Shown: positions 3,290 through 40,348, counted from the first letter of the stretch. The stretch is DNA of 64,000 nucleotides from an uncultured Candidatus Saccharibacteria bacterium (GCA_964512925.1 CAZEKH010000001.1:39445-103444), one strand, 5' to 3'. Notes: generated from the letters alone by a model not told the origin. Made by a program: numbers and translations.

Positions 3290-4036
3290 TTACGGTTGAT
3301 ATCTGATGCCCAATTCCGGGTAAAATGCCTTATTGCTGATAGCAAAAACTATTAAATTCACAACATCTTTCACGTCCAAAGAATTGCTTAAATCCCGATT
3401 GTTGCCAGCTGTTTTAAACAAGAGGGTTTTTATCATACCCGGGTATATGCCCATAACCTTAACCCCGCTGCCAGCCAATTCTTCCTGCATCCCTTTGGTA
3501 AATCCAGTGATAGCCCATTTGGAAGCCTGATACACAGCTCTTTCCGCTTTGGCATAAATTCCGGCCTGAGAAATTATATTTATAACCAAACCTTGTTTTT
3601 GTTTCTTCATATATGGCAACACGAGTTTTGTTAAAAGGATAGTACCCAAAGTATTTACCTCCAAAACATCGCGGATCTTTTTGGAATCATTATCTTCCAA
3701 CTTCCCTTGGATCCAAAGCCCAGCGTTGTTTATAAGCACATCTATTTTCTTAAACTTTTTCAAAGTTTGGATAATCACTTTTTTTAGCTGCTCTTCTTTA
3801 GTCACATCGCCAGGTAAAATCAAAAACTGTTCTTTCTTAAAGTCTTTCAAAAGTTCTGTTTCCAGGGCTTTGCATTTTTTTATATCCGGCGCAAAACCAC
3901 AAACCAAAAACCCCTGGGATAACAGTTCTTTTAAAGTCTCTTTTCCAATCCCGCTAGTTACCCCGCTGATCAAGACAACTTTGGTTTTTTCTTTTGTTTG
4001 CATAGAATTTAAATGTATTAAAATTAGTTCAATCAA
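3290..4036 (-). CDS. SDR family NAD(P)-dependent oxidoreductase
   Basis: VVLISGVTSGIGKE (TGxxxGxG) cofactor motif and YQASK (YxxxK) catalytic motif. Confidence 0.8.
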   Translation of the reverse strand: MIELILIHLNSMQTKEKTKVVLISGVTSGIGKETLKELLSQGFLVCGFAPDIKKCKALETELLKDFKKEQFLILPGDVTKEEQLKKVIIQTLKKFKKIDVLINNAGLWIQGKLEDNDSKKIRDVLEVNTLGTILLTKLVLPYMKKQKQGLVINIISQAGIYAKAERAVYQASKWAITGFTKGMQEELAGSGVKVMGIYPGMIKTLLFKTAGNNRDLSNSLDVKDVVNLIVFAISNKAFYPELGIRYQP

Positions 4037-4466
4037 CTATTGATTTACTCATCCCTTTGATCTCTAATTTTAACCTTACTAATTTTCCTTTTCTTTTTAC
4101 AATATTTTTATAATCCCACTGGATTTCTTTAGCCTTTTTTAACCATTTTTTAAGCTCACTAATTTTTATTTCGCTCACATCCTTATAAAATATTTCAGCA
4201 GCTTTAAATTTTCCTTCTGGGATCAAATCTTCTTCTTGAAATGTCTGGCCGCTAAAAAACATCAGGGAAACTCTCTCATCTTTTCTGACTGAGTAAGAAA
4301 CCACAGGATTTCCGTCCAAAAACCAAACGGGTGAACCGTGCCATATCTTTGACTCAGACTCTTTAAGCGCATTGCCAATTTCCAATCTTAGCAATTCACA
4401 AATTTTTTTATTATTCTTTGTCTGCGCAGTGTTGTAAGCTTTTATGGTTTCATACAGCTTTTTCAT
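4029..4466 (-). CDS. DUF1801 (YdhG-like) domain protein
   Basis: 145 aa. Pattern WHGSPVWFLDGNPVVSYSVRKDERVSLMFF resembles the DUF1801 family. Overlaps the SDR gene by 8 nt. Confidence 0.4.
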   Translation of the reverse strand: MKKLYETIKAYNTAQTKNNKKICELLRLEIGNALKESESKIWHGSPVWFLDGNPVVSYSVRKDERVSLMFFSGQTFQEEDLIPEGKFKAAEIFYKDVSEIKISELKKWLKKAKEIQWDYKNIVKRKGKLVRLKLEIKGMSKSIVD

Positions 4467-7969: not shown

Positions 7970-7991
7970 CCCTCCCCTCTCAAGGGGAGGG
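7970..7991. promoter_or_regulatory. Family-A palindrome CCCTCCCCTCTCAAGGGGAGGG (SD-containing hairpin) upstream of the alr start
   Basis: Perfect pyrimidine/purine hairpin. On the minus strand its purine arm plus AAGGGAGAGG lies 7-17 nt before the alr ATG. Confidence 0.5.
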
Positions 7992-9554: not shown

Positions 9555-9595
9555 CCCCTCCTTTCTAAGGAGGGGTGTCCCGATCTGATCGGGAC
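9555..9595. promoter_or_regulatory. Two adjacent palindromes (CCCCTCCTTTCTAAGGAGGGG and GTCCCGATCTGATCGGGAC) in the murF 5' leader
   Basis: On the minus strand, AGGAGGGG lies 10 nt upstream of the murF ATG. Family-A hairpin. Confidence 0.5.
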
Positions 9596-9610
9596 GGGGT
9601 GGTTAAAGCC

Positions 9611-11245: not shown

Positions 11246-11281
11246 AAAAACACGCTCCGATGTAAAATCGGAGCGTGTTTT
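11246..11281 (-). terminator. Hairpin terminator immediately 3' of tRNA-Ala(GGC)
   Basis: AAAAACACGCTCCGAT-GTAAAA-ATCGGAGCGTGTTTTT. Confidence 0.55.
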
Positions 11282-21667: not shown

Positions 21668-21688
21668 CCCCTCCTCGGGCAGGAGGGG
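21668..21688 (+). promoter_or_regulatory. Family-A SD-containing hairpin CCCCTCCTCGGGCAGGAGGGG in the infB leader
   Basis: The 3' arm AGGAGGGGAGG ends about 10 nt before the infB ATG at 21700. The 5' arm CCUCC is identical to the 16S anti-SD core. Confidence 0.55.
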
Positions 21689-23686: not shown

Positions 23687-23727
23687 AAAACCCGCCCCGA
23701 TGTCTATCGGGGCGGGTTTTGTTTTTT
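23687..23727 (+). terminator. Rho-independent terminator after infB
   Basis: AAAACCCGCCCCGAT-GTCT-ATCGGGGCGGGTTTTGTTTTTT. Confidence 0.65.
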
Positions 23728-28743: not shown

Positions 28744-28812
28744 TTAAATGTAATAAAAAATACTACAAATATTCACCCCTCCCCATTCGGCGAGCTCAGG
28801 GCAGGCTCTAAC

Positions 28813-28832
28813 CCTCCCCCTCAAGGGGAGGG
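28813..28832. repeat. Family-A palindrome CCCTCCCCCTCAAGGGGAGGG (near-identical to the copy at 7970)
   Basis: Perfect hairpin, not adjacent to a start codon. Confidence 0.45.
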
Positions 28833-28879
28833 AAAATATAAGGAATGACAGATAAAATTTTACAAATAACTCACCCCAT

Positions 28880-28903
28880 CCCTCTCTTTGAAAAAGAGAG
28901 GGG
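28880..28903 (+). promoter_or_regulatory. Family-A hairpin CCCTCTCTTTGAAAAAGAGAGGG in the leader of the RNHCP gene
   Basis: The 3' arm GAGAGGGGG ends 7 nt before the ATG at 28910. Confidence 0.5.
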
Positions 28904-28909
28904 GTTAAT

Positions 28910-29221
28910 ATGACATTCACTAAAAAAACTGAAAATTTCACTTGTAAACACTGCGGACACAAAGTAAAAGGCAACGGCTTTACTAACCATTGTCCAAAAT
29001 GTTTGTATTCCCGCCACGTGGATGTTTGGCCCGGGGATAGGAAAGAAGAATGTGGGGGACTGATGGAGCCTGTGGGGATGGAGCTAAAAAACGAAAAATA
29101 TATTTTAACTCACAGGTGCCTGGTTTGCGGCAAAGAAACCCACTGCAAAGCCAGCAACAATGACAGCATTGACGCCCTGACAAAGCTCTCAGAGAAGCTT
29201 GTCAAAAAAACATTTTTTTGA
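28910..29221 (+). CDS. RNHCP-domain zinc-ribbon protein
   Basis: FTCKHCGHKV...GFTNHCPKCLYSRHVD...CLVCGKETHC. The RNHCP motif is present as TNHCP. Confidence 0.55.
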   Translation: MTFTKKTENFTCKHCGHKVKGNGFTNHCPKCLYSRHVDVWPGDRKEECGGLMEPVGMELKNEKYILTHRCLVCGKETHCKASNNDSIDALTKLSEKLVKKTFF

Positions 29222-29282
29222 TATATTATGCATTAGTCCCTATATAAATTCGTGTGAATAAATCACGAAGAATACTTCATAA

Positions 29283-29339
29283 GGGCGATTAGCTCAGCTG
29301 GTTAGAGCGTCCCGATGCACATCGGGAAGGCCAAAGGTT
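29283..29339 (+). pseudogene. 5' tRNA fragment: first 27 nt identical to tRNA-Val, Cys-type anticodon arm (GCA), truncated in the T-stem
   Basis: GGGCGATTAGCTCAGCTGGTTAGAGCG-TCCCGATGCACATCGGGA-AGGCCAAAGGTT, then TATATATG (no T-loop or acceptor 3' strand). Confidence 0.5.
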
Positions 29340-29344
29340 TATAT

Positions 29345-29617
29345 ATGTTTTACGTATATATATTACAAAGCTTAAAAAATAACCGCTATTATATCGGATC
29401 AACTAATAATGCAGAAAGGAGATTAGCTGAACACAACGCTGGAATAAACATTTCTACAAAACCATACAGACCGTGGAAGATAGTTTTTTGTCAGTCTTTC
29501 GAAAGTAAAGATACAGCCCATAAAGCTGAATTAAAGTTAAAAAAATATAAAAGCAAATTAATTTTAGAACAAGTAATTAGGGATAAATATATAAGGGCGA
29601 TTAGCTCAGCTGGTTAG
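29345..29617 (+). CDS. GIY-YIG nuclease family protein (YhbQ/UPF0213-like)
   Basis: MFYVYILQSLKNNRYYIGSTNNAERRLAEHNAG is a canonical GIY-YIG core. AAAGG RBS. The 3' end with its stop codon lies inside the first 25 nt of tRNA-Val. The track ORF starts at 29315, within the tRNA fragment. Confidence 0.75.
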   Translation: MFYVYILQSLKNNRYYIGSTNNAERRLAEHNAGINISTKPYRPWKIVFCQSFESKDTAHKAELKLKKYKSKLILEQVIRDKYIRAISSAG

Positions 29618-29671
29618 AGCGACTCGTTTACACCGAGTAGGCCAAAGGTTCGAATCCTTTATCGCCCACCA
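29595..29671 (+). tRNA. tRNA-Val (anticodon TAC)
   Basis: GGGCGATTAGCTCAGCTGGTTAGAGCGACTCGTTTACACCGAGTAGGCCAAAGGTTCGAATCCTTTATCGCCCACCA. Confidence 0.85.
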
Positions 29672-29718
29672 CGCTTAGCGTGGTGAATGGTACGCTCAGC
29701 GTACCCACCATATACCAC
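29669..29718 (+). repeat. Conserved tRNA 3' trailer with two hairpins (CACCACGC-TTA-GCGTGGTG; GGTACGC-TCA-GCGTACC)
   Basis: A near-identical approximately 50-nt copy sits in opposite orientation 3' of tRNA-Ile at 40105-40154. The first hairpin incorporates the tRNA ACCA end. Confidence 0.6.
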
Positions 29719-29828
29719 TCGATGACTCTGGTATATGGCACAGCCAATAAAAGTAGAAAGTGGTAAAGTTATCAAGTTTTTCCTTTCAACATTACGAACT
29801 TGATAAACTTTAAACTAAAATGTTATGC

Positions 29829-29903
29829 GCCTCGGTAGCTCAGTGGTAGAGCAGACGCCTGAAGAGCGTCGTGTCGTCAGTTCGATTCTGACCCGAGGCA
29901 CCA
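29829..29903 (+). tRNA. tRNA-Phe (anticodon GAA)
   Basis: GCCTCGGTAGCTCAGTGGTAGAGCAGACGCCTGAAGAGCGTCGTGTCGTCAGTTCGATTCTGACCCGAGGCACCA. Confidence 0.85.
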
Positions 29904-29946
29904 GACATATTGAATATTTTATAGTTTTTGATAAACTATAAAATAC

Positions 29947-30020
29947 GCGGCTATGGTTCAATGGTAGAACAATACCTTGCCAAGGTATGGACAGGGGTTC
30001 GATTCCCCTTAGCCGCTCCA
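29947..30020 (+). tRNA. tRNA-Gly (anticodon GCC)
   Basis: GCGGCTATGGTTCAATGGTAGAACAATACCTTGCCAAGGTATGGACAGGGGTTCGATTCCCCTTAGCCGCTCCA. Confidence 0.85.
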
Positions 30021-30355
30021 AAGAAAAATGCTTCACCCCTATGGTGGAGCTTTTTTCTTTGGTAAGGATATAGGAGAACCGTAAGTTCAACCACGCCCAC
30101 AATAGCCTATAAAAAACAACTACAAGTTATAAATAATGGGTCATGTCCCCATTGTCCCACCTGGTGGATAGTTTTGTTTCTAATCCCACTAGTAAATATT
30201 GTAGTTGCGGTAATGGTCTGGATGGCTTTGGCAGAAAGAATGCACAAACCTTCCTGGTTAGGAATTTTGATCATAATTCCGATCATAAACATAGCCATAC
30301 CAGGTTACCTGGCTTTTTCTGAACAAACAACCACACCTATAAATTAAAGTCATAT

Positions 30356-30380
30356 AAAACCCCTATTTTATAGGGGTTTT
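30356..30380 (+). terminator. Perfect hairpin terminator AAAACCCCTAT-TTTA-ATAGGGGTTTT
   Basis: Follows a possible small membrane-protein ORF (about 30178-30351) not in the ORF track. Confidence 0.55.
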
Positions 30381-30710
30381 ATATTGTATTACAGAAAAAA
30401 CTGCATTTGACACCTATTTTTATTGGCTTTTTTTATGCTGTTTTTTTTCTAGCTTAAATAAAAGACTTTTTTAATCATTTTTTAAGCTGTTATTTTGCCG
30501 GAAAAAAGCTTTTCTCTCATATATAAAGCAAAAAGAGTCATTTTAGTCTTGATTTTTTACCTCAAAATAGGGTATAATATCTTTACAGTGCTGTGAAAGC
30601 GCTTTTTTATTTGCCTTTGCAAAGCACTGGACTTTCGCATCTAGCGAAACGATTGCGTTCTTAATCGAACGGTCAGCAATCGTTCTTTAATACCTATATC
30701 AGAAAGGAGT

Positions 30711-31451
30711 TTGATTCTAAGAATGAAAGCTCTTTTTGCCATCAGGTCTGTCCTGGCTAAAATTGATTTAGTCAGCGCAATTGCCCTGCTGATAGTTGTT
30801 CCGACCATTTACCCGGAACTGGCTTTCGCAGCTGAATTGTCAAAGACCGCTCAGGCTGAAACCGCCATAATTTTTGAAATCAAAAACCCCTCAGTTCTTT
30901 TACAAAAAAAGCCAACATCAAATTCCCCGATAGAACAGATTGCGGAAACTGTTGAACTTGCAAGCATTGAAGATATACAAAATTCAGATCCGTTAGTTGT
31001 AAAACTAACCGATTATTTAAACAAACATAATTCCCCGCTTGCAGAATACGCGCCGGAAATCGTCAAACAACCCCAATGGCAGAGATCTCTAGCTATTTCC
31101 TGGGTTGAGAGCAATTTCGGCAAACGTTGTTATACCAACAACTGTAGCGGCATCGGCGTAGCTCCCGGTCATCCTTTATGGAGATCTTACGCGACTAAAT
31201 TGGACTGGTTTAAAGATATGTGCCAGCTGATGGAAAAACCGATGTACAAAGTAAAATACACCACCTTTGAACAAATGCGCGGCATTTATGTTTACCCTGG
31301 AAGCAGCTCTTGGGTAAACGGAGCAAAGAAGAAGTATGCTGAGCTGATGGAAATAACTACTCAGGCTGAACAAGAAAAGCTTGCGGCTGTTGAAGTTAAA
31401 ACCCACAACGACAATCTGCACACCTTTCCGGAGCTGGCTATAGCCAGATAA
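30711..31451 (+). CDS. Hypothetical secreted protein (signal peptide, Cys-containing C-terminal domain)
   Basis: N-terminal hydrophobic signal-like segment LAKIDLVSAIALLIVVPTIYPELAFA. No confident family. True start may be the internal ATG (MKALFAI). Confidence 0.45.
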   Translation: MILRMKALFAIRSVLAKIDLVSAIALLIVVPTIYPELAFAAELSKTAQAETAIIFEIKNPSVLLQKKPTSNSPIEQIAETVELASIEDIQNSDPLVVKLTDYLNKHNSPLAEYAPEIVKQPQWQRSLAISWVESNFGKRCYTNNCSGIGVAPGHPLWRSYATKLDWFKDMCQLMEKPMYKVKYTTFEQMRGIYVYPGSSSWVNGAKKKYAELMEITTQAEQEKLAAVEVKTHNDNLHTFPELAIAR

Positions 31452-31457
31452 AACTTT

Positions 31458-31481
31458 AAACCCCCGCCAAAGCGGGGGTTT
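31458..31481 (+). terminator. Terminator AAACCCCCGCC-AA-AGCGGGGGTTT
   Basis: Perfect 10-bp GC stem right after the stop codon. Confidence 0.6.
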
Positions 31482-31526
31482 AAAGTTGCCAAACACCGAA
31501 ATTTTGTTTAAAATTATATGGTTATT

Positions 31527-31601
31527 GGCGCGATGGTGAAGCAGTAACACTGCGGTCTGCAAAACCGCCACGCGTGGGTGCAAATCCCACTCGCGCCTCC
31601 A
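31527..31601 (+). tRNA. tRNA-Cys (anticodon GCA)
   Basis: GGCGCGATGGTGAAGCAGTAACACTGCGGTCTGCAAAACCGCCACGCGTGGGTGCAAATCCCACTCGCGCCTCCA. Discriminator U73. Confidence 0.85.
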
Positions 31602-31628
31602 ATAAATAAGAGTCTCAACGAGGTTTAA

Positions 31629-31732
31629 GGTCTGTCATCCCTTCGGGAGATCCCCCGTAAGGGGGACAAAACCGCCACGCGTGGGTGCCATCCCTCCGGG
31701 AGATGTAAACACAAATCCCACTCGCGCCTCCA
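31629..31732 (+). pseudogene. Partial tRNA-Cys 3' duplicate interrupted by two family-B-related hairpin insertions
   Basis: GGTCTG [TCATCCCTTCGGGAGATCCCCCGTAAGGGGGAC] AAAACCGCCACGCGTGGGTGC [CATCCCTCCGGGAGATGTAAACAC] AAATCCCACTCGCGCCTCCA. Outside the brackets it is identical to nt 33-75 of the intact tRNA-Cys. Confidence 0.55.
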
Positions 31733-31807
31733 CTGCTTCGTCCGCCTAGGGCGGACTACGCAGTGCAAGCAAAAAAATCTTTAACATTATAAAAACATTA
31801 CATACCT

Positions 31808-31894
31808 GCCCGGGTGGCGGAACTGGCATACGCTACTGACTTAAGATCAGTCGCCCTTACGGGATTGAGGGTTCAACTCCCTCCCCGGGCACCA
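31808..31894 (+). tRNA. tRNA-Leu (anticodon TAA)
   Basis: GCCCGGGTGGCGGAACTGGCATACGCTACTGACTTAAGATCAGT + long variable arm + GAGGGTTCAACTCCCTCCCCGGGCACCA. Confidence 0.85.
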
Positions 31895-32164
31895 TTTAGT
31901 TATCAACATTTGACAGGGAAATTATTGGGTGGTAAATTATTTTTACTGATTAAATTTTTGAATTGAAACAAAGTCACAGATTTTCAATTTCTTACAATTC
32001 TAAAAAGTCAACCCAATGGCTTAGTTTGTTGTAAACGGATTCAGATTTGAATTACGTTTTTTTTATTACCTAAAGCCTTGACAAAAATATAAAAAAATAG
32101 TATAGTATGCGGTTACAACTTTTTTAAGCATATTACTTTAATTCTTCAACTTTTGTTGTAAACT

Positions 32165-33550
32165 ATGACAACCAAATCCGCTTCCAAACATAAAAACGGT
32201 TTTAAAAAATTCTGGCGCCTTGGACTGGAAGACTTTAACACAGGCAATTTTACCATTGGCCCGGATGGGGAACTGATTGTAAGGGAAGGCAACTTCCAAT
32301 ACAACATTTTTGATATTGTAAAAAAATACGGCACATCCACGGAAATTGTGTTTCCTACCATCATAGAAAACCGTGTGAGGGATTTGATTGAAACGTTCAA
32401 TGCTTATATCAAAGTTTTAAGCTACAAAGGAAAGTTTTTTTACCACTACGCGATGAAAGTCAACCAGAACAAGGAGTTTGTTCTGCCGGCCGTGGCAGAG
32501 GGGGCAAATCTGGATGTGGCTTCAGCCAATGAATTGTATTTGGTAAAAAAAATGATTGAGCAGGACAAGTTTAACGCTAAAATCCGCGTCATTTGCAACG
32601 GACCCAAAACTCCCAAATATATGGAGCTGATTGAAGAACTAAAAAGCAAAGGACTGATAGTAATCCCAATCATAGAAGACCACGTGGAGCTGGAACGGAT
32701 GCTTAAGTTTAAAGGCGAAGTCGGCATACGAGTTAACTTAAATGTCAAAGTAGACAGTCATTGGGACAAACGCTATAACCGCTACGGTTTTACCGAGTCA
32801 GAACTTTTGTCTTTGGGAAAAATCCGAAATCTGTCCGTCCTGCATTACCACATCTCCAGCCAAATAGAAAAAACCGAAGGCTTTGTTGCTCCTTTAAAAC
32901 GAGCTTTAGACCTGTACGCCAAACTCAGAGAAAAAAATCCGGGGCTTGATACTTTAGACTTAGGCGGGGGAGCGGCGGTGCCTTATGAAAAAAAGAAGCC
33001 GATATATTCGGGAAAAAATTTAATTCAAAACATAGTTAAAACCGCCAAAAACCACTGCGACAAACTTGGAGTAAAACATCCTGATCTGATAGTGGAATGG
33101 GGCAGATACGTGGCAGCCCCGGCCCAGATCACCATCTATAAAATTTTGGCGGAAAAAACCGTAGACAACAAAGGCAAAAACAAATGGTATGTCATAGACG
33201 GGAGTTTTATGAACGACCTGATAGACACTTGGGCGATCCACCAAAAATGGCACGTTACTCCAGTAAACTATATGAATGCCAAAAAGCTGGAAAAAGTCTG
33301 GCTGGCCGGCTCCTCCTGCGACTCTGACGACAAATACACTGCCGGCGGCAGCTATATCCTTTTACCCAAGCTCTCAGACTGCGACGAACTCTATATCGCG
33401 CTTTACGACACAGGCGCATACCAGGATTCCCTGGCTTCCCACCACTGCCTGCTCTCGAGCCCAGCAAAACTCATAGCGCAAAATGGAGAAATCAAAGTAG
33501 CCAGAAGAAGAGAGCAACCGGAAGAAGTTGGCAAACAATTTGGTTGGTGA
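32165..33550 (+). CDS. PLP-dependent decarboxylase, Orn/DAP/Arg decarboxylase family 2 (SpeA-like arginine decarboxylase)
   Basis: The N-terminal YNIFDIVKKYGTSTEIVFPTIIENRVRDL resembles SpeA. The PLP lysine lies in the context HYAMKVNQN. GGGAAVPY glycine-rich loop. Confidence 0.7.
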   Translation: MTTKSASKHKNGFKKFWRLGLEDFNTGNFTIGPDGELIVREGNFQYNIFDIVKKYGTSTEIVFPTIIENRVRDLIETFNAYIKVLSYKGKFFYHYAMKVNQNKEFVLPAVAEGANLDVASANELYLVKKMIEQDKFNAKIRVICNGPKTPKYMELIEELKSKGLIVIPIIEDHVELERMLKFKGEVGIRVNLNVKVDSHWDKRYNRYGFTESELLSLGKIRNLSVLHYHISSQIEKTEGFVAPLKRALDLYAKLREKNPGLDTLDLGGGAAVPYEKKKPIYSGKNLIQNIVKTAKNHCDKLGVKHPDLIVEWGRYVAAPAQITIYKILAEKTVDNKGKNKWYVIDGSFMNDLIDTWAIHQKWHVTPVNYMNAKKLEKVWLAGSSCDSDDKYTAGGSYILLPKLSDCDELYIALYDTGAYQDSLASHHCLLSSPAKLIAQNGEIKVARRREQPEEVGKQFGW

Positions 33551-40104: not shown

Positions 40105-40154
40105 ATAAAAATATGGCGGGTACGCTGAGCGTACCATTCACCACGCTAAGCGTG
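40105..40154 (-). repeat. Second copy of the two-hairpin tRNA trailer (3' of tRNA-Ile)
   Basis: Reverse complement of ACCACGCTTAGCGTGGTGAATGGTACGCTCAGCGTACCCGCCATAT. Confidence 0.6.
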
Positions 40155-40228
40155 GTGGGCGTGCCTGGACTCGAACCAGGGACCCCGAAGGTATAAGCTT
40201 CGTGCTCTAACCAGCTGAGCTACACGCC
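40152..40228 (-). tRNA. tRNA-Ile (anticodon TAT, AUA-reading)
   Basis: Reverse complement GGGCGTGTAGCTCAGCTGGTTAGAGCACGAAGCTTATACCTTCGGGGTCCCTGGTTCGAGTCCAGGCACGCCCACCA. Anticodon loop CTTATAC. Confidence 0.75.
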
Positions 40229-40348
40229 CGTGTAACTAAGGAGTATTATAGAAAAAATTCACCAATGAAGCAATAGGTCTATTTTGCAAAAAATTTAAAA
40301 GGGTGTATATTTTAGGAAAGTTCTTGTCTTTCCTTTTAGGAGGCTTCG

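Follow-up and report, generated by a model that had tools for sequence, protein, structure and literature searches.

A GIY-YIG nuclease gene paired with a hairpin-bearing tRNA fragment recurs beside bacterial tRNA genes and may be a homing-like cassette

The phage T4 endonuclease SegB has ~220 amino acids (aa) and a DNA-binding domain. It cuts DNA in the T4 tRNA region, promoting inheritance of that region (PMC2330249). Among bacteria of the Candidate Phyla Radiation (CPR), most surveyed insertions in rRNA genes sit at the tops or bases of stem-loops (PMC11270868), and the group I introns reported from Patescibacteria tRNA genes are described without mention of GIY-YIG proteins, hairpins or duplications (PMC13011429). 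Eukaryotic Slx1 cleaves branched or hairpin DNA in a structure-specific manner (PMC6902002), and the stand-alone minimal Slx1-like form is considered ancestral by Dunin-Horkawicz et al. 2006 (PMC1564403). Here we describe a locus of an uncultured Candidatus Saccharibacteria bacterium in which a short GIY-YIG open reading frame (ORF) is lodged between a hairpin-bearing fragment of tRNA-Val and the intact tRNA-Val gene. The locus lies in a stretch of 64,000 nucleotides (nt) (GCA_964512925.1, CAZEKH010000001.1:39445-103444), which is called the window below and is numbered from its first letter. The same anatomy recurs at many tRNA identities in several phyla, and it probably represents a selfish, homing-like, mobile cassette specialised on tRNA genes.

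The intact tRNA-Val(TAC) gene (29595-29671, + strand; called by ARAGORN and by Rfam at 73.6 bits) is preceded by a crippled 5′ copy of itself, F5 (29283-29339, +), made up of the acceptor 5′ strand, the D-arm, a hairpin, the variable loop, the T-stem 5′ strand and the first two T-loop bases. Positions 1-26 of the tRNA (27 nt, 29595-29621) are duplicated without mismatch at 29283-29309 (27/27), and positions 44-55 (29639-29650) reappear as AGGCCAAAGGTT at 29328-29339 on the + strand, identical at 12/12 bases, which bears out the coordinates, the overlaps and the two shared stretches given in an initial annotation of the window. Together with the ATAA that precedes the tRNA, positions 1-26 form a 31-nt direct repeat, the upstream copy of which (29279-29309, +) is identical to 29591-29621. 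A BLAST comparison inside the window aligns the fragment with tRNA-Val over 61 nt at 87% identity (E=1.4e-13). Fit to tRNA models had been proposed as the arbiter of the duplication; the fragment does fail such models, being called as a tRNA by neither ARAGORN nor Rfam in a scan of the region, nor by Rfam when the 57-nt fragment is given alone, but the duplication is established all the same because the fragment is directly identical to the neighbouring tRNA. As a functional tRNA it would be lacking the 3′ half of the T-arm and the 3′ acceptor strand. Two read-set assemblies, independent of each other, agree exactly with the window as far as 29308 and then break within the 31-nt repeat.

Between its two tRNA-identical stretches the fragment carries an 18-nt palindromic hairpin, TCCCGATGCACATCGGGA (29310-29327, assigned to neither strand), which is an exact substitute for the anticodon stem-loop, that is, for the 17 nt of tRNA positions 27-43. 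It folds as a 7-bp stem with a 4-nt loop (DNA fold -7.3 kcal/mol, z=-3.3). This arm had been taken for a Cys-type anticodon arm with the anticodon GCA; it has no similarity to the real tRNA-Cys of the window (31527-31601), and an origin from tRNA-Cys was rejected.

Comparison with syntenic sites identifies the ORF locus as an insertion. The closest relatives by the neighbouring RNHCP gene are Candidatus Doudnabacteria, and two of their loci, L070 and L071 (RNHCP 70% and 61% identical to that of the window), have the order RNHCP, promoter-like box (TTGCCA, 17 nt, TATATT) and tRNA-Val(TAC), with no GIY-YIG gene in either; in L070, tRNA-Phe and tRNA-Gly follow. The corresponding box in the window (TTGTCA, 17 nt, TATATT, TG-extended; 10/12 matches) lies at the end of the RNHCP gene (29199-29227, +) and is presumed, from its sequence, to be the promoter of both the tRNA operon and the ORF inserted in that operon. 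F5 begins 55 nt past this box, where the tRNA would be expected to start, and so stands at the native tRNA distance (the spacer is ~57 nt in L071 and longer in L070). Deletion of 29310-29621 (+), a segment of 312 nt that is missing at the relatives' syntenic site and holds the hairpin, a linker, the ORF and the second copy of the 31-nt repeat, renders the window colinear with L070 and L071. Because this removal restores colinearity with empty sites, a cassette was inserted into the tRNA-Val gene, and the locus is indeed the footprint of a small GIY-YIG cassette that the initial annotation had supposed. Presence or absence at an otherwise conserved site, a trait of homing genes, is found here as a comparison between species. 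The 12 tRNA genes of the window include a single such cassette copy.

A search for relatives with the same arrangement minus the GIY-YIG gene, which had been named as the finding that would speak against a mobile origin, returned none; L070 and L068 hold only a different, older-looking remnant. At 3846-3890 in L070, and likewise in the corresponding part of L068, the first 13 nt of tRNA-Val are present in a further copy ~100 nt upstream of the intact tRNA-Val, with a hairpin after them and no ORF; an earlier cassette, since lost, possibly left this scar. We also note that in L068 (3960-4150) an insert of ~125 nt interrupts the anticodon loop of the resident tRNA-Val; this insert contains a complete second tRNA-Val(TAC) (4032-4106) and no ORF, and it is bordered by CCCGCCAAAATT and AATTTAGGCGGG, the hairpin also found in the tRNA-Phe intron of that contig.

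The ORF (29345-29617, +) encodes a protein of 90 aa that consists of a minimal Slx1/UPF0213-type domain. Its match to PF01541 (E=5.5e-18; 65.5 bits against a cut-off of 22.6) places it in the GIY-YIG superfamily, and its TAG stop (29615-29617) corresponds to nucleotides 21-23 of tRNA-Val, inside the D-loop, both of which agree with the initial reading; the final seven codons and the stop are encoded by the first 23 nt of the tRNA. The true start is most likely the ATG at 29345 (MFYVYILQS; homologues begin MFYVYIL), and the deposited call of 100 aa begins at an ATG inside the hairpin (29315); an exact look-up of that 100-aa protein gave no entry. The old T-stem purine run, AAAGG (29333-29337), stands 7 nt upstream of ATG 29345, a spacing at which it is likely to serve as the ribosome-binding site. 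Many database homologues have N-terminal extensions of 20-45 aa, probably through read-through of the fragment.

Residues Y5, Y16, G18, R26, H30 and E62 are invariant among 42 homologues. Compared with structures in the PDB, the family profile matches the UPF0213 proteins 1zg2 (6e-16) and 1ywl (3e-13) and SLX1 (2e-8), and more weakly I-TevI (5e-4), the last over the N-terminal motif. An architecture of the I-TevI/Seg type is not seen, as the NCBIfam intron endonuclease model TIGR01453 scores 21.9 bits against a cut-off of 56 and covers only residues 4-35. The 90-aa protein is all catalytic domain, with no room for a second, DNA-binding domain, and by the sequence criteria of that branch it is classified as a minimal stand-alone Slx1/UPF0213-type nuclease. 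The subfamily comprises 7,197 cluster representatives at E<=1e-3 and 701 at E<=1e-10. Within clades, the ratio of nonsynonymous to synonymous substitution rates (dN/dS) is 0.07-0.23 at a dS of 0.6-2.3 (one value, for L063/L064, was discarded as an alignment artefact). The protein has long been kept functional and is under long-term purifying selection.

A pattern search (N[NG]RYYIGST; one genome per species) yielded 65 homologue loci, encoding proteins 37-59% identical, from Patescibacteria, Omnitrophota, Verrucomicrobiota, Dehalococcoidia, Elusimicrobia, Kiritimatiellales and others, with several of the third-party taxon labels of the assemblies being doubtful. A same-strand tRNA lies within 110 nt of the ORF in 59/65 loci, compared with ~3.5% expected from the tRNA density of the outer flanks, and the tRNAs next to the ORF have 11 identities: Ala, Val, Gly, Glu, Asp, Arg, Thr, His, Pro, Met and Ile. 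Across the ORF from the adjoining tRNA, 41 of these 59 loci have a significant partial copy of it (z at least 6.6). Where the intact tRNA lies downstream of the ORF, the partial copy is the 5′ part and lies upstream; in the mirror form, the intact tRNA lies upstream and the partial copy is the 3′ part, downstream. The 5′-side duplication to which the initial annotation drew attention is real, and it is the commoner form within this GIY-YIG/tRNA family. Upstream fragments end within the T-loop (by eye, at positions 55-60) and downstream fragments start within the D-loop. The ORF extends into the tRNA in 28 of the 44 loci with a tRNA following, and the tRNA's own U8-A9-G10 TAG serves as its stop in 20/44. 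The three closest metagenomic homologues (L208, L209 and L210) share this layout. The duplication extends past the tRNA, upstream by 4 nt in the window, 9 nt in L015 and ~30 nt in L058, and downstream through the terminator in L031; because it reaches into the flank, at least part of it was made on the spot.

Two further observations concern individual loci. At 2326-2398 in L047, a hairpin-bearing fragment that overlaps the true tRNA-Val is miscalled by ARAGORN as tRNA-Cys(GCA). Three loci have a second, more distantly related GIY-YIG ORF just downstream of the same tRNA (L009 2888-3082, L011 2980-3219 and L049 2880-3110), with no obvious hairpin fragment, and other small GIY-YIG subfamilies may also reside at tRNA genes.

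The hairpin recurs with the ORF. It stands at the equivalent spot beside homologous ORFs at Ala, Gly, Asp, Val, Arg, Thr and other tRNA genes, and this presence in the same place at many tRNA types speaks against a Cys/Val recombinant. A CCGA(2-10)TCGG hairpin is near the ORF in 52/65 loci, and up to 200 nt from the ORF the strict hairpin motif shows an 83-fold enrichment over the rest of the loci. Hairpins in partial copies have the consensus N-Y-C-C-G-A-Y-G..C-R-T-C-G-G-R-N, and in fragment-bearing loci the hairpin usually occupies exactly positions 27-43, with D-stem sequence before it and AGG after it. In a set of 37 distinct hairpins, some of which were chosen by a rule that requires pairing and thus inflates the paired fractions, C-G stands at 30:40 and G-C at 31:39 without exception, 29:41 has C-G in 35/37 and a T-G wobble in the other 2, and compensatory variation is present at 27:43 (four Watson-Crick types), 28:42, 32:38 and 33:37. 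Pairs 32:38 to 34:36 shut what would be the anticodon loop. Some dead copies (L208, L057, L044 and L064) have extra hairpins of a like kind, either in the D-loop or where the T-arm would be.

Use of the hairpin as a unique signature was rejected, with metagenomic occurrences of the 18-mer pattern lying mostly away from tRNAs and GIY-YIG genes. The clear metagenomic matches to TCCCGATGNNCATCGGGA that have a tRNA-like setting and enough flank did adjoin a GIY-YIG ORF, and viral sites of the hairpin pattern were near a tRNA or GIY-YIG gene in 0/15 cases. Elsewhere in the window, terminator-like hairpins with a CCGAT..ATCGG core like that of the fragment hairpin are found at 11247-11281 (-), 23688-23720 and 9577-9596. 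A spread of hairpins in this genome resembling repetitive extragenic palindromic (REP) elements was considered and rejected, as CCGAT..ATCGG (4 sites) is no commoner than other GC-rich cores. The commonest GC-rich hairpin type of the window is CCCTCC(C)C..G(G)GGAGGG, which is intergenic (28812-28832, 7970-7991, 9555-9575, 21668-21688 and others).

Protein clades mostly track tRNA type (Gly-GCC, Ala-GGC, Val, Thr-CGT, Asp, Met and Arg) in a neighbour-joining tree, which carries no support values. Clades of mixed type retain one hairpin variant: L044 (Ile) groups with L042 and L055 (Val), and L004 (Val) with L015 and L018 (Asp). This co-occurrence of protein clades and hairpin variants suggests that the heritable unit is the hairpin plus the GIY-YIG ORF. 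The fragments, in turn, follow their own neighbouring tRNA. Their first 22 nt are identical to that tRNA in 16/27 loci and match same-type tRNAs of other genomes at ~16-17/22 in three of four groups and at 12.8/22 for Asp. Because the fragment tracks its own tRNA, the dead copy must either be kept matched to its neighbour, through gene conversion or through selection, or be repeatedly remade. More elaborate arrangements also occur. Two hairpin-bearing halves enclose a different intact tRNA and the ORF in L055 and L052, and because their acceptor strands are complementary, the halves represent one split tRNA-like gene. In L032, a perfect 26-nt repeat that includes the hairpin flanks the ORF and the tRNA on both sides. 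L042 (2400-3200) has tandem hairpin-bearing tRNA-like copies around tRNA-Val(GAC), two upstream and two downstream, each of the downstream ones with its own copy of the terminator.

A selfish, mobile cassette with homing-like behaviour would account for this anatomy as follows. The cassette sits on the tRNA strand of a tRNA operon and would be driven by the tRNA promoter. The interrupted tRNA survives as the fragment, and a complete tRNA copy is left or brought beside the ORF; because a complete copy of the same tRNA adjoins the ORF, the host loses nothing. The ORF, with no stop of its own, borrows the tRNA TAG. Its Slx1-like product may nick or cut the DNA of tRNA genes at the hairpin-forming arms or close to them, after which the cassette would be copied into tRNA genes by recombinational repair; structure-specific cutting is suggested because positions 27-43, at a stem base, are replaced exactly. 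Our confidence in any particular cutting site is much lower than in a mobile cassette as such. The hairpin may either shield the dead copy or mark it for the nuclease, and RNase P cleavage at the tRNA 5′ end (29595) would remove the stop codon and could thereby hold expression low. Campbell-type integration of a circle via the D-arm or T-arm was considered and dropped, as its predicted products are without the duplicated outer flank that is observed.

Several points weigh against a mobile cassette. Cleavage, target and movement are inferred, and a 90-aa protein without a DNA-binding domain leaves the choice of target unexplained. Any site wholly inside the tRNA is retained by the intact tRNA beside the ORF, which is awkward for classical homing. 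The hairpin sequence is unspecific, with only 5/127 metagenomic TCCCGATGNNCATCGGGA sites near a GIY-YIG ORF and 7/127 near a tRNA. The nearest empty sites are in genomes in which the neighbouring protein is only 61-70% identical, not in strains of the same species, and sampling with one pattern means that the 65 loci represent one subfamily. The family is essentially absent from viral contigs, where a single partial match was found; an origin from phage was rejected on this count, and no vehicle is known. Finally, clades that keep mostly to one tRNA type and have a low dN/dS fit long vertical residence or a host function equally well.

This last point leads to a resident host gene, which we regard as unlikely though deserving of real weight. 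The ORF would then encode an Slx1-like nuclease that acts on tRNA or other RNA, in processing, quality control or repair, and is co-transcribed with the tRNAs; the hairpin-bearing fragment would serve as its leader at the 5′ end or as a site of regulation, and the duplications would have arisen as a side effect when sequence was locally duplicated in tandem. A host role would fit the strong purifying selection, the fidelity of most clades to one tRNA type and the invariable position of the ORF on the tRNA strand, tightly fused to the tRNA, as well as the conservation of the hairpin with compensatory changes, as expected of an RNA element. Dunin-Horkawicz et al. 2006 (PMC1564403), who note a prokaryotic fusion of an Slx1-like domain with a TrmH tRNA methyltransferase, also suggest an RNA role. 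A resident host gene accords poorly with the syntenic relatives that have no ORF at the same site, with the lone copy among the window's tRNA genes, and with the marks of DNA rearrangement, namely the 11 tRNA identities, the fragments, the dead-copy arrays (L042) and the foreign tRNAs nested in split ones (L052 and L055). The latter two loci, in which the halves of a split resident tRNA enclose an intact tRNA of another kind, would in turn suit a role for the hairpin-bearing fragment as a targeting or specificity module, a possibility to which we assign rather little probability. The fragment would direct the nuclease to the matching tRNA gene either as a guide RNA by base pairing or, in DNA form, as a hairpin or cruciform to which a structure-specific enzyme is recruited, and with the cassette's own intact tRNA this would amount to a cleave-and-rescue drive of natural origin that acts on an essential gene. 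The 5′ part of the fragment is still identical to the neighbouring tRNA though synonymous sites of the ORF are near saturation, the hairpin is co-inherited with the protein lineage, and the protein has no DNA-binding domain, all of which favour such a module. However, the identity has a simpler explanation in gene conversion, as the direct repeats are 300 nt apart, many loci show decay of positions 44-55 at the 3′ side of the fragment, no evidence supports a separate fragment RNA, and we know of no RNA-guided GIY-YIG enzyme.

The remaining explanations have a very small share of our belief. A chance leftover or artefact, such as a decayed tandem tRNA duplicate, a Cys/Val recombinant or a repeat misassembly around an unrelated small ORF, is highly improbable. 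The window does come from a metagenome-assembled genome, and short-read unitigs break in the repeat, but the same anatomy is present in >60 independent assemblies from several phyla, the relatives have a single tRNA-Val at the site, the fragment is without similarity to tRNA-Cys, and the ORF is intact and conserved. We give slightly less credence still to an intron or intervening sequence that is excised from RNA, joining the fragment to the tRNA 3′ part to make a second tRNA. In its favour are the group I intron of the relatives' neighbouring tRNA-Phe and the GIY-YIG-encoding non-intron insertions of CPR rRNA genes (PMC11270868). It is opposed by the absence of any Rfam ribozyme, Intron_gpI included, from 28800-32200 at E up to 10, by a method that does detect the intron in the relatives' tRNA-Phe; in addition, only ~40 nt remain outside the ORF, the hairpin is unusable as an anticodon arm, and an intact tRNA is already there.

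Other features of the operon lie downstream of the cassette. tRNA-Phe (29829-29903, +) and tRNA-Gly (29947-30020, +) form the remainder of the operon in the gene order of L070, followed by a terminator-like hairpin at the operon end (30030-30050, +; with its T-run, 30030-30060). The window's tRNA-Phe is without an intron, and in the tRNA-Phe(GAA) genes of L071 (4028-4324) and L068 (4325-4592) the anticodon loop is interrupted by a group I intron (RF00028, 65-67 bits). One and the same trailer sequence stands behind tRNA-Val (29663-29705, +) and tRNA-Ile(UAU) (40119-40161, -), with exact matches to a 36-nt pattern at 29670-29705 and 40119-40154. It comprises two hairpins, CACCACGC-TTA-GCGTGGTG, the 5′ strand of which is the tRNA ACCA end, and GGTACGC-TCA-GCGTACC, and then CCACCA or CCGCCA again; its RNA fold has -24 kcal/mol (z=-5.2), and it could act as a signal for processing or represent a small insert at the 3′ ends of tRNAs. 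The tRNA-Ile with anticodon UAU (40153-40229, -) represents an uncommon bacterial way of reading AUA.

Stand-alone Slx1/UPF0213-type proteins are common in bacteria, and this locus offers a testable context for them in the form of tRNA genes, a hairpin and a repeatable duplication. If the cassette is a mobile element, it would have a new way to invade an essential RNA gene without killing the host; if instead the fragment is a targeting module, a first function would be at hand for the widespread bacterial UPF0213/Slx1-like proteins. In practical terms, the fragments break short-read assemblies, give false tRNA-Cys(GCA) calls, as in L047, and can inflate tRNA counts and ORF calls (100 versus 90 aa).

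Each of the known systems shares some of these traits. Like T4 SegB, the GIY-YIG gene is free-standing among tRNA genes and outside introns (PMC2330249). Unlike SegB, which is a site-specific homing enzyme of the I-TevI type, the protein has only the 90-aa Slx1/UPF0213-type domain, and SegB is a phage gene, whereas the present family is cellular and nearly absent from viral contigs. The minimal catalytic domain is that of stand-alone Slx1-like/UPF0213 proteins (PDB 1zg2, BH0048; 1ywl, EF2693; PMC1564403), with (near-)invariant Tyr, Arg, His and Glu columns. These solved UPF0213 members are annotated only as hypothetical proteins, and we found no literature report linking UPF0213 proteins to tRNA genes, tRNA fragments or mobility. 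As for hairpin substitutions or tRNA fragments, we know of none reported for SegB. Integrase-borne islands and prophages likewise enter tRNA genes in such a way that the tRNA stays intact and a part of it is present again as a direct repeat, but they carry a tyrosine integrase, duplicate the 3′ end and span kilobases. The present insert does not qualify as such an island: it has 312 nt, no integrase and the GIY-YIG gene as its sole ORF, its repeat is the tRNA 5′ part, the duplicated sequence lies mostly 5′ and takes in some of the upstream flank, and the anticodon arm of the dead copy is swapped for a hairpin. The non-intron insertions of CPR rRNA genes (PMC11270868) are found in the same organism group and place GIY-YIG ORFs in structured-RNA genes without a group I or II ribozyme; unlike the present cassette they interrupt rRNA genes, with no regenerated gene copy described, and tRNA is not mentioned there. 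Patescibacteria tRNA group I introns (PMC13011429) occur in the same organisms and at the same kind of target, but no ribozyme is present here, and the cassette lies beside an intact tRNA and not within it. In the literature that was searched, no account was found of tRNA fragments with a substituted hairpin next to GIY-YIG genes. Selfish nuclease genes at tRNA genes are a known kind; what is unusual here is the 5′-side duplication, the swap of the anticodon arm and the domain-only Slx1-like enzyme, a design that recurs beside many tRNA genes across phyla and has apparently been undescribed so far.

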